Below are positions 12,317 through 16,190 of a stretch of DNA of 64,000 bases, piece after piece. Where the stretch lies: positions 2,272,001-2,336,000 of the forward strand of contig CM000151.3 in NCBI GenBank assembly GCA_000004695.1, given 5' to 3'. The position numbers and the translations under genes were made by a program. Numbering within the stretch: position 1 is the first letter of the stretch; each line of letters starts with the position of its first letter. The notes below the pieces were generated by a model that saw only the letters and a program-made list of their open reading frames with translations, ran no database searches and was not told the origin of the DNA. Source of the DNA: Dictyostelium discoideum (Eukaryota).

Positions 12317-15300
12317 TTATTTTAAATCAAAAAGTTTATAAACTCTATTTTTAGTTTTTTCAAAACCAAATTTTAGATAAAAACCACCAATATATGATTC
12401 AATATGATCACCCATTCTTTTTACAGAGAAATGTTTAAATGAATCTTGTTGACTTGGAGAGAATATATTTTTATTTGATTTTAAAATTTTTGATAAATTT
12501 TCATTATTCACTAATTTAGATTTTGATTCTGTCAAGTAACCTTCTTGTTGTTCTTTATATTTTGAAAAGAGATAATCTGCAACAATGAAATCTAAAACTG
12601 CATCACCTAAAAATTCTAATCTTTCAGAGAAATTTGTATTATTATTATTATTTTGATTTGAATAGAAATGATCATTTGAAACTAATTCATTTGTTTGATC
12701 ATTAAAATCTGTTGAATTTAAATATTGATTAATTTGATCATAATATTTATAATTAATTAAATTATCTTCAATAATTGGTAATTCATCATTATTATTGATT
12801 TCACTACCACCACCACCACCACCATAAATTTTATTATCACTACCATAATAACTATTATCAAAAATCCATTTAATAATCCAATCAAATGAATCTTTAAAAC
12901 CACATTCAATATAAATTGCACCAATGAAAGCTTCAATTAAATCAGCATGAGGTTTTGAATGATCACCAATGGTTGTAATACGTAAGATATAATCGAAACC
13001 GATTCTTCTTGATAATTCAGTTAAATATTCATTCTTTGTGTAGAATTCTCTTTTCTTTGATAATAAACCTTCACCTTCATTATCGAATTTTTTAAATAAA
13101 TATAGAGATGAAGTGATTTTTAAAACTGAGTCACCTAAAAACTCTAAACGTTGATAATCCTTCATAAATGGTCTATAGGATTGAAATTGATCTTTTTCAA
13201 TTGGTTTACGTTCACTAATTACTTTTGTTGATGGATGAGTTAAAACTTCTCTCAATACTTGATTGTTTGTATTGTTTTTAAATTTACAAACTATATCTTT
13301 AATATAGTTTGATTCATTTATAAATTTCAATACTTTTAAATTCCATTTCAATTCACAAATTAATGGTAAAACACCAAATTTACCTAATAATCCAACAAAA
13401 CATGGGAATCCAACGACTACAACTTCTAGTGGATTCTTTCTTAAAATTTTTGAATTTCTTTGATAATCTTTTAAATCTAATGGTGGTTCATTATTTATTA
13501 TTATTGTTTCTTCTAAACCATTATCATTATCATTATCATTATTATTATTATTGATTTGTTTTTTTAATTTCCAATCATTTGGTTTTTCAAATTTACCATT
13601 ACTATCAAAGAATACAATATATTTAGATATCCAATATTCTTTATCATTTTTACCTCTTGAATGAAAACAATCTAAAAGTAATTTCTTTTCACTATTTTCA
13701 CTAATTGATTGACAATTGAAATATTCACCATAATCACTTAGTACGATTCTATCATTACAAAGTTGATTAATTCTTTCCATTGTTAAATCTTGTTCTTCAA
13801 TTGATTCAAAATCGAATAAATTTAATAAATCATCAAATAATCTATTAAAATCTGTATAGTTTTCATTGATATTTGGTATCACTAAATGACTATTATTAAA
13901 ATTATTTTCATTTGTTATATCTTTAACTTTTAAATATTTTTGACATAATAATTTTGAAAAGAATGAATTATGAATTGTTATTAATTTTTCAAATTCAATT
14001 TTCTTTAATTGGATTTTAGTTGGTTGTTGTTGATCATCAAATAAATTTGTAATTGCAACACCAAAATGATCATTTGCAAGATTTGAAACATGAATCACTG
14101 GTAAAGTTGGTAATTTATTAATAGAGAATAATAAAAATTCACTAGAGAATTCATATTCTTTTTCTTGATGTTCAAATTTAATTATATTTGGTGGATTTGA
14201 AATTATAATTTTATAAACATATAATTCTGTGATTTCTGTTATATTATTTGAATTAAATAATTTGTCTCTTATCCTTTTAAATCCTTTTTCTCTAATTTTC
14301 TTTGGTGGTTTAACTTTTACTATACTTGATGTAATTGCTGTTTTTGTTGTTGTCGCTGTAGTTGTTGCTGTTGTTATTGTTTCAACTTTTTTTTCTTTAT
14401 TATTTTTATATTCTTGATCACTTGGTGATGATAGTGCTATTGTAGTTGTAGTTGTACTTGTACTTTCATTATTGTTTTTTTTATCATCAAGACTATAATC
14501 CTCTGTGATAATATTATTTTTATTTTTATTTTTTTTTGCATTTGCAAGTTCATCCAATAGATTTACAGACTTTGTTAATGAGAGACCTGACATTCCGATA
14601 ATAATATTATTATTATTATTATTATCACCTTCTAAAGCATTTCTATTTATTTTATTATTATCAAAATCTATTTTGCTATTAATACTATTGGAATCACTGT
14701 TATTATTATTATTATTATTATTGTTATTTATATCAATGCTACCACTATTGTTGTTGTTATTATTATTTTTATTATTTTTTTTATTGTTAATTAAAATTTT
14801 AAGATTATCATGAAGCGAATTCATTGATTCAAAAATAGATGAAAAAGTAGTATTATCTAACCTATCCAATTGTTTTGAAATTTTATCTAGCTTTTGTTCT
14901 AAAATAAGTTGCTGTTTCAAAAATTGATCTAATTGTTGTTGTTGTTGTTGTAGTTGTAGTTGTAGTTGTTGTAGTTGTGGTTGTTGCAGTTGTTGTAGTT
15001 GTGGTTGTTGTAGTGGTTGTAGTTGTGGTTGTTGTAGTGGTTGTAGTTGTGGTTGTTCTATCTGTTGTTCTATCTGTTGTTGTTGTTGTTGTTGTTGTTG
15101 TTGTTGTTGTTGTTGTTGTTGTTGTTGTTGTTGTTGTTGTTGTTGTTGTTGTTGTTGTAGTAGTAGTTGTTGTAGTTGTTGTAGTTGTTGTAGTTGTTGT
15201 TGTAGTTGTTGTTGTTGTTGTTGTTGTTGTTGTTGTTGTTGTTGTTGTTGTTGTTGTTGTTGTTGTTGTTGTTGTTGTTGTTGTTGTTGTTGTTGTTGTT

Positions 15301-16059
15301 GCGGTTGTGGTTGTGGTAGTAGTGAGTGTAGTTGTAGTGGTGATTGTGGTTGTGAGAATGCATGTTTTAGTTTTTGTATTCTTTGTTGTTCTGTCTGTTG
15401 TTGTAGTTGTAATATTTGTTGTATTAGTTGTTGTTGATTTTGTTGTTGTAGGTGTTGTTGTTGTTGTTGTTGTTGTTGTTGTTGTTGTTGTTGTTGTTGT
15501 TGTAGAAAAGGGTTATTCATTTCAAATTGTGTTTCACTACTTGGTGATAATGTTGGTGAAATAGGTAATCTAATTGTTGGAGATATTGGTCGTTGAGGTT
15601 GAGTTTGAGTTTGAATTTGAGGCTGTTGATTTAAAAGTTGATAAAGTTTTGGAATTGGTAGAGTTTGATTTTGAAATTGTTGTTGTTGAGGTTGTTGCTG
15701 AGTTTGTCTTTTTTCTAAAAAATCTAATACAAGTTGTGAACAATCTGCTTCTGCTTCTTTTTTACTCTTTTTTTTTGTTGAAACAAATTCATGACCTAAA
15801 TAAATGCAAGTTGTCTATTTATTTTTATAGAAATTTAGATTAGTTAATAAATAAATACCAATAATAATAATAATTAATAATAATAATAATAATAATAATA
15901 ATAATAATAATAATAATAATAATAATAATAAAATTTAATAAGTACTGTAAAAAAGGGATCATGATCTAAACCTTCATTCTTTGTAGAAAATACAGGTGTA
16001 GGACCAATTTTATATTTTTGAAGGAATTCATTTAATAAAGACCTTGAATTCACAATCAT
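12317..16059 (-). CDS. Dicer-like RNase III (N-terminal dsRBD, very long polyQ, two RNase III domains), 2 exons (15946..16059, 12317..15814)
   Basis: There are two RNase III signature blocks, QRLEFLGDSVLKITSSLYLF… and SERLEFLGDAVLDFIVADYLF…. The dsRBD is split by an intron. Exon 1 reads MIVNSRSLLNEFLQKYKIGPTPVFSTKNEGLDHDPFFT. Exon 2 begins TTCIYLGHEFVSTKKKSKKEAEADCSQLVLDFL…, which is the GxG…SKKxAK half of a dsRBD. The 131-bp intron contains (AAT)n. This is a Dictyostelium drnA/drnB-type architecture; I cannot say which paralog. More than 150 Gln are encoded by (CAA)n. Confidence 0.85.
14985..15070. repeat. 27-bp coding tandem repeat (QPQLQPLQ units) inside the (CAA)n-rich region of the Dicer-like gene
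   Basis: gttgtagttgtggttgttgtagtggtt repeats three times and is flanked by pure (TTG)n/(CAA)n from 15070 to 15300. Confidence 0.7.
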
Positions 16060-16060
16060 A

Positions 16061-16190
16061 TTATTATTATTATTATTATTATTATTATTATTATTATTAT
16101 TATTATTATTATTATTATTATTATTATTATTATTATTATTATTATTATTATTATTATTATTATTATTATTATTATTATTATTATTATTAT
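16061..16190. repeat. (ATT)n microsatellite, about 130 bp, abutting the Dicer-like start codon
   Basis: The run is an uninterrupted attattatt…. Confidence 0.9.

Follow-up and report, generated by a model that had tools for sequence, protein, structure and literature searches.

Introduction

Dictyostelium discoideum has just two Drn genes, of which DrnA is DDB_G0273051 (UniProt Q95ZG5) and drnB is DDB_G0268410 (PMC4894637). Both products carry an N-terminal domain for binding double-stranded RNA (dsRBD) followed by two RNase III domains, and are devoid of PAZ, DUF283 and helicase domains (PMC4894637); the same layout is repeated in a 2023 Dicer review (PMC10328071). The helicase domain of the Dictyostelium system sits on RNA-dependent RNA polymerases, not on Dicers (PMC4894637). 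In DrnB, the dsRBD covers residues 9-75, a Leu occupies position 7, and a nuclear localisation signal (NLS), SIRKRRRKR, is found at 493-501 (PMC5056781). This study concerns a window of 64,000 nt, the whole stretch of DNA analysed, from chromosome 2 of D. discoideum AX4. A gene on its minus strand is very probably drnA (drnA-1, DDB_G0273051), a Dicer-like class-3 RNase III gene of two exons, for which a domain mechanism is proposed. Since the layout was already described (PMC4894637, PMC10328071), the finding is already known. The result is a correct rediscovery of a characterised gene, in which a split domain was reconstructed from sequence across an AT-rich microsatellite intron.

The role of DrnA as a Dicer producing small interfering RNAs (siRNAs) from transposon-derived double-stranded RNA (dsRNA), such as that of retrotransposons, is inferred from PMC6161686 and PMC11014262. 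From this literature, in vivo production of siRNAs from dsRNA is presumed for DrnA, which is probably essential (PMC6161686, PMC11014262, PMC4894637). A drnA- strain was analysed by Hinas et al. 2007 (PMC2175303); drnA is present in two copies in AX4, within the chromosome 2 duplication, which may bear on the discrepancy over that strain.

The protein encoded in the window does not differ from DrnA (Q95ZG5) in its organisation, which consists of an N-terminal dsRBD, a low-complexity linker and tandem RNase III domains (PMC4894637, PMC5056781). It differs from DrnB in its linker, which is Q-rich here and P/S-rich in DrnB, in its basic patch, and in its presumed siRNA role, DrnB acting on microRNAs (miRNAs). 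Canonical Dicers (human DICER1, Drosophila Dcr-1/Dcr-2, Arabidopsis DCL1-4) begin with a DExD/H helicase and DUF283, whereas DrnA begins with a dsRBD and then low-complexity sequence. Set against these enzymes and the minimal Giardia Dicer, DrnA is without a helicase, DUF283, a sequence-recognisable PAZ domain and a C-terminal dsRBD.

Between the central domain and the C-terminus, the predicted model is structurally most similar to animal Drosha (human DROSHA; PDB 6V5B, 9ASM, 5B16). Both proteins have a long low-complexity N-terminal region, and neither has a helicase or DUF283. In Drosha, a platform/PAZ-like/connector module precedes the two RNase III domains (RIIIDa and RIIIDb), an arrangement that the fold predicted for DrnA resembles. 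In contrast, Drosha carries its dsRBD at the C-terminus and DrnA at the N-terminus, the Gln-rich linker of DrnA has a Pro-rich and Arg/Ser-rich counterpart in Drosha, and a DGCR8 homologue is not implied for DrnA. As far as it is cited in PMC5056781, a published phylogeny groups the Drn RNase III domains with Dicers.

Gene model and domain organisation

Coordinates are positions in the window, and all drnA features lie on the minus strand. The gene spans 12317..16059 (minus) and consists of the following parts:

15946..16059, minus strand: exon 1, 114 nt, 38 codons, encoding MIVNSRSLLNEFLQKYKIGPTPVFSTKNEGLDHDPFFT, reaching from the start codon through the dsRBD's first half
15815..15945, minus strand: intron, phase 0, 131 nt, GTACTT...AAATAG, mostly (ATT)n on the gene strand
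12317..15814, minus strand: exon 2, 1165 codons plus the stop codon at 12319..12317
15722..15814, minus strand: second half of the dsRBD, with the rest of beta2, beta3, the KKKSKKEAE motif and helix alpha2

Translation of the spliced gene gives a protein of 1203 amino acids (aa) with one terminal stop, whose position agrees with the annotated gene ends at related loci. A mechanical list of open reading frames (ORFs) holds at this locus an ORF of 1067 aa (12317..15520; beginning MNNPFLQQQ) and, apart from it, one of 61 aa (15874..16059). An earlier note on this DNA had observed that the list misses the first exon, that the long frame is open upstream to an acceptor at 15814, and that a 114-nt exon at 15946..16059 encodes the first half of a dsRBD whose second half lies in exon 2. 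These observations hold. The omission is merely a property of mechanical ORF listing. On re-reading and translation of the DNA, the frame above the ATG at 15520 is open up to the TAG at 15817..15815, the AG of which is the proposed acceptor. Splicing from 15946 to 15814 joins DHDPFFT to TTCIYLGHEF within strand beta2 of the dsRBD, helix alpha1, beta1, the GxxH loop and the start of beta2 being supplied by exon 1. Retention of the intron leads to a translation stop after 61 aa (ORF 15874..16059).

The splice is backed by four independent lines of evidence: Pfam profiles, solved structures, comparative loci and independent annotations. A complete Pfam dsrm match is obtained only from the spliced protein, at residues 6-69 (15946..16044 plus 15722..15814), with 48.9 bits against a cut-off of 23 and coverage of profile positions 2-64 of 66; the unspliced parts score below the cut-off (exon-1 ORF, 17.1 bits; exon-2 half, 20.9 bits). 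The spliced domain also aligns without gaps over the junction with the solved dsRBDs of Arabidopsis DRB4, DRB2 and HYL1, as in GLDHDPFFT/TTCIYLGHEF (the slash marks the junction) against GPSHAPTFTSTVEFAGKVF of a solved plant dsRBD. This single dsRBD stands at the extreme N-terminus, the position that defines the Drn family. The evidence indicates that the two-exon model, with an intron splitting the N-terminal dsRBD, is correct.

The remainder of the protein contains the following segments:

14909..15721, minus strand: Gln-rich low-complexity linker, residues 70-340, with 154 Q
14840..14932, minus strand: conserved segment after the Q tract, LDQFLKQQLILEQKLDKISKQLDRLD
14261..14311, minus strand: basic patch, KPPKKIREKGFKRIRDK, residues 540-556
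13223..14257, minus strand: central domain, residues 558-902, about 345 residues, no Pfam match
12857..13264, minus strand: RNase III domain a (RIIIDa), Pfam PF14622, residues 889-1024
12368..12625, minus strand: RNase III domain b (RIIIDb), Pfam PF00636, residues 1102-1187

RIIIDa contains QRLEFLGDS at residues 926-934 (E929, D933) and DLIEA (D996, E999), and RIIIDb contains ERLEFLGDA (E1105, D1109) and DHIES (D1174, E1177). Judged by these motifs, both active sites are intact, each with its four acidic catalytic residues (E/D/D/E). The Pfam matches and acidic residues thus bear out two RNase III domains that are predicted to be catalytically intact, as proposed in the earlier note. Its second motif, ERLEFLGDA, is present in RIIIDb, but its first, ERLEFLGDS, was misread: the DNA encodes QRLEFLGDS, which keeps the catalytic E and D. 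QRLEFLGDS is the normal Dicer RIIIDa form. A C-terminal dsRBD is absent from the model, which ends 16 residues past RIIIDb.

The segment following the Q tract is kept in D. firmibasis (LEQKIDKISKQLDRLE), and heptad-like segments are found at this place in more distant homologues; it is probably helical or a coiled coil. Between it and the central domain lies an Asn/Thr-rich spacer with the basic patch at its end. By analogy with the NLS of DrnB (493-501; PMC5056781), which has a comparable position, this patch is a putative NLS.

Fold of the central domain

The central domain is conserved with the Cavenderia protein. A word-indexed homology search with a central-domain alignment found nothing, and an exhaustive profile search over 1.84 billion representatives recovered no more than 10 proteins. 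Nine of these include the N-terminus, and all nine share the layout with an N-terminal dsRBD; the remaining one, P0048, is a fragment of 576 aa whose start lies in the central domain. Neither the DrnA model nor any of 11 family members gave a Pfam match to a helicase, PAZ or DUF283. When a 2-sequence profile of the central domain was compared with PDB, only unrelated chains were returned, non-significantly. The 10-sequence profile gave three matches at E<=10, all of them to human Drosha and colinear over the whole domain, and these were likewise non-significant (E 1.3).

Residues 558-1203 were modelled by AlphaFold2 with an 11-sequence alignment, giving a mean pLDDT of 75.7 and a pTM of 0.74, with most of the central domain at 80-93. 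A model made with a 2-sequence alignment was discarded (mean pLDDT 29.8). In Foldseek against PDB, the top rank went to human Drosha (E 1.9e-16, TMq 0.56-0.60), with DCL3, Dcr-2 and mammalian Dicer next. Whole-length alignments with Drosha and Dicer reached TMq values of 0.5-0.6, whereas a single bacterial RNase III domain reached only 0.14-0.18. Structure-comparison figures were 22.2 for Dcr-1, 19.8 for DCL1 and 18.5 for Giardia Dicer.

The predicted fold suggests that the central region may be a divergent platform/PAZ-like/connector module, and that the absence of PAZ may hold at the sequence level only. The earlier statement that the protein has no helicase or PAZ domain therefore stands as far as Pfam profiles are concerned; its PAZ part is put in question by the resemblance of the predicted central fold to platform-PAZ-connector. 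A wider proposal, that the central region of all dictyostelid Drn proteins is a cryptic platform-PAZ-like-connector cassette of the most Drosha-like kind, so that Drn proteins would not be "core-only" Dicers, is offered tentatively, as a serious possibility that falls somewhat short of being probable. In the accessible literature, a platform/PAZ-like/connector assignment is not stated for Drn proteins, and the 2023 review reports a PAZ-like predicted fold only for the Dicer of S. pombe (PMC10328071). The central-domain fold is the sole part of this analysis that goes past the accessible literature.

Alternatively, the central region could be lineage-specific and unrelated to platform/PAZ. DrnA would then be a "core-only" Dicer, and its product length would be set otherwise, for example by partner proteins or by cooperative binding as in budding-yeast Dcr1. 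This agrees with the 2023 review, in which DrnA/B retain the core only, the Drn central part is without sequence homology, and the length-measuring mechanism is unknown (PMC10328071). It also agrees with the lack of a Pfam match to PAZ, platform or DUF283 in the 11 family members, and with the non-significance of both the PDB sequence matches and the hhalign comparisons. The alternative is nevertheless considered rather unlikely, given TMq values for Drosha and Dicer well above those for the single bacterial RNase III domain, and given that every PDB sequence match at E<=10 is to Drosha and colinear along the domain.

If the platform/PAZ-like/connector cassette is real, Drn proteins would be Drosha-like molecular rulers with the dsRBD shifted to the N-terminus on a flexible tether, and a Drosha-type architecture would exist outside animals. 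This would give a concrete, testable answer to the question of how DrnA/DrnB set product length (PMC10328071), and length measuring in the non-canonical Dictyostelium Dicers could be tested by mutagenesis.

The intron and start codon across relatives

Syntenic regions were fetched via the neighbouring alcohol-dehydrogenase gene, yielding seven sequences that represent five Dictyostelium taxa: D. discoideum (three assemblies, L001-L003), D. cf. discoideum (L007), D. citrinum (L006), D. dimigraforme (L005) and D. firmibasis (L004). The intron occurs at the identical codon position in 7/7 sequences, after PFFT, PFFI or PSFI. Its lengths in these relatives are 154, 131, 130, 119, 134, 98 and 79 nt (131 nt in the window), none a multiple of 3. 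Exon 1 is conserved in six other loci, where most changes are synonymous or conservative. No microsatellite is present in the D. firmibasis intron, indicating that the repeat accompanies the intron and did not give rise to it.

For comparison with deposited annotations, the donor of the model and the acceptor homologous to its own were then applied to each relative locus. The model agreed exactly with the annotated span and length in L001 (1826..5666, 1228 aa), L003 (1767..5601, 1234 aa), L004 (2495..5720, 1048 aa), L005 (1091 aa) and L007 (1168 aa); a tally over the loci with a drnA annotation of their own puts exact agreement at four of five. The annotated starts in L001, L003, L004, L005, L006 and L007 are the exon-1 ATG or its homologue.

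A second alternative is that the main product begins at the internal ATG at 15520 (M137, MNNPFLQQQ...), with exon 1 and the dsRBD absent or confined to a minor isoform. The mechanical ORF begins at this ATG, and deletion of the dsRBD of DrnB leaves miRNA maturation unimpaired (PMC5056781), so a dsRBD-less enzyme could function. However, the 98 codons from 15814 to 15520, like both halves of the dsRBD, keep their frame and are conserved throughout the seven sequences of the five taxa, independent annotations begin at the exon-1 ATG, and the literature gives DrnA an N-terminal dsRBD (PMC4894637). An internal start is thus very improbable, and translation from exon 1 is the preferred reading.

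Two of the deposited annotations depart from this model. In D. citrinum (L006, 1752..5608), the 1224-aa annotation has a 182-nt intron and drops 16 dsRBD residues (TTCNYLGYEFISKKKK); a 134-nt intron to the acceptor homologous with that of AX4 gives an intact dsRBD and 1240 aa. The deposited version is probably mis-spliced. In one D. discoideum assembly (L002, 1..5597; GCA_054883475.1), where the drnA DNA equals that of the window but for one intron base, the deposited annotation merges the upstream SNF2-family gene and drnA into one 2753-aa product. This fusion probably reads through the (AAT)n tract and looks like an annotation artefact.

Deep conservation of the dsRBD intron was considered and rejected. 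The dsRBD of the Cavenderia fasciculata homologue P0001 (L008, 3001..3250) is uninterrupted, indicating either loss of the intron in Cavenderia or its restriction to the Dictyostelium (group 4) lineage.

Identity of the gene

Five neighbouring ORFs, including DDB_G0273027, match D. discoideum AX4 proteins exactly and place the window on chromosome 2. Each of the five has two gene identifiers, for example DDB_G0273027 and DDB_G0274073, and these paired identifiers indicate that the window lies inside the known AX4 chromosome 2 duplication. The DrnA/DrnB layout assigned in the earlier note matches the published description (PMC4894637), and of the two genes this one is, very probably, drnA. Because the SIRKRRRKR signal, Leu 7 and a dsRBD at 9-75 are all absent and there are only two Drn genes, the gene is assigned to drnA-1. 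That it is instead drnB, the miRNA-processing paralogue with a domain order in common with DrnA, can be dismissed, as these three DrnB features are missing from the model and drnB is DDB_G0268410, while the window neighbours carry DDB_G02730xx/02740xx identifiers of the chromosome 2 duplication.

Exact look-ups in a collection of 15 billion proteins gave no match for either the spliced AX4 protein or the ORF-only protein. Also absent from this collection are the orthologues annotated in D. firmibasis and in another D. discoideum isolate, whereas the neighbouring genes are present. A word-indexed homology search returned only a 28%-identical Cavenderia homologue and generic RNase III proteins. 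Close drnA relatives appear to be missing or masked in the protein collection.

Several points weigh against the reading of this locus as a two-exon drnA with a Drosha-like central domain. The name DrnA was returned by no sequence database, the identity following from elimination and gene-identifier proximity. The splice junction rests on comparative and profile evidence and on the literature statement that DrnA has an N-terminal dsRBD, and its donor, GTACTT, is unlike the GTAAGT-type consensus. For the central domain, the Drosha sequence-profile match is the non-significant one given above, hhalign against single Drosha and Dicer sequences gave probabilities <2%, and the assignment comes from one AlphaFold2 model built from 11 sequences.

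Proposed mechanism

The protein runs from the dsRBD (6-69) through a Gln-rich linker of about 270 residues, a short conserved and probably helical segment and an Asn/Thr-rich spacer to the central domain and the two RNase III domains. In the proposed mechanism, the latter would pair as an intramolecular dimer in which each domain cuts one dsRNA strand, an arrangement established for class-3 RNase III enzymes. The predicted platform/PAZ-like/connector module would hold the end or junction of the dsRNA in place and fix the distance at which it is cut. Further affinity for dsRNA would come from the tethered N-terminal dsRBD, in place of the C-terminal dsRBD of Dicer and Drosha.

Repeats and length variation

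One further feature lies directly upstream of the gene:

16060..16190, minus strand: 5' trinucleotide microsatellite of about 44 copies, reading (AAT)n along the gene strand and abutting the start codon

Tandem Repeats Finder reported this repeat at 16059-16190 (period 3, 44.0 copies, 100% matches) and a second, (AAT)23.7, at 15860-15931 in the intron. The earlier note had described the intron as largely (AAT)n and some 130 bp of trinucleotide repeat as abutting the ATG, and both descriptions are accurate; the 5' tract is a perfect one. The (AAT)44 tract is presumed to be 5' untranslated region or promoter-proximal DNA.

The DrnA model contains 182 Gln in total (176 by CAA codons), and the count for residues 70-340 confirms that the linker has more than 150. 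Tandem Repeats Finder gave an imperfect (CAA)n array of 571 bp at 14933-15503 ((TTG)n on the forward strand). The pure CAA runs measure 96, 81, 48 and 18 bp. The pure runs of hundreds of bp that had been claimed were not found, since only the imperfect array attains such a length. The claimed 27-bp tandem repeat likewise has to be corrected: four copies of a 24-bp unit of 8 codons, QPQLQ(P/Q)LQ, lie at about 14965-15060, shift 24 giving a self-match of 0.86 and shift 27 one of 0.66.

The suggestion that the gene is a hotspot for length polymorphism was borne out by inter-isolate comparison, in which linker, intron and 5' repeat all differ in length. The 5' repeat measures 129 nt in the AX4-like L002, 141 nt in D. 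cf. discoideum, and 30 and 9 nt in two other D. discoideum isolates; it measures 9 nt in D. citrinum, 9 nt in D. dimigraforme and 0 nt in D. firmibasis. Intron lengths among isolates and species run from 79 to 154 nt. The linker, measured from the dsRBD to the conserved KISKQLDR segment, has 277 residues with 155 Q in AX4, and 267 with 151 Q and 296 with 186 Q in two other D. discoideum isolates. Corresponding values are 198 with 117 Q in D. cf. discoideum, 149 with 86 Q in D. firmibasis and 95 with 15 Q in D. dimigraforme, and the linker of the Cavenderia homologue is Ser/Thr-rich, not Gln-rich.

Neither the length nor the composition of the linker is conserved, which suggests that the tether acts as a flexible spacer; the large variation further indicates that no tight constraint holds the dsRBD at a set distance from the catalytic core. 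As trinucleotide microsatellites, the repeats are of the ordinary Dictyostelium kind, and the linker, the intron and the 5' flank tolerate them. Thus, three repeat-bearing parts of an apparently essential RNA interference gene differ greatly between natural isolates.

In another D. discoideum assembly (L001, about 3700-3800; GCA_054859355.1), a loop of the central domain contains about 30 Gln where AX4 has DDQQQPTK (window about 14000, minus strand). This suggests that CAA expansion is tolerated inside the folded central domain too, and not just in the linker. Alternative-frame and antisense ORFs also overlie the CAA array, namely a poly-Val ORF of 195 aa at 14977..15564 (plus) and a poly-Asn ORF of 97 aa at 15070..15363 (minus). 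Such poly-Val/Leu and poly-Asn ORFs were rejected as genes, being mechanical by-products of the trinucleotide repeat.

Flanking genes

Upstream of drnA, a 1518-aa SNF2-family helicase with long poly-Q/poly-N tracts (Pfam SNF2-rel_dom, Helicase_C) is encoded at 16541..21133 (minus). The downstream flank, at 11023..12051 (minus), encodes a HEAT-repeat protein of the deoxyhypusine-hydroxylase type (HEAT_2 and HEAT_PBS matches) and has one intron or more.

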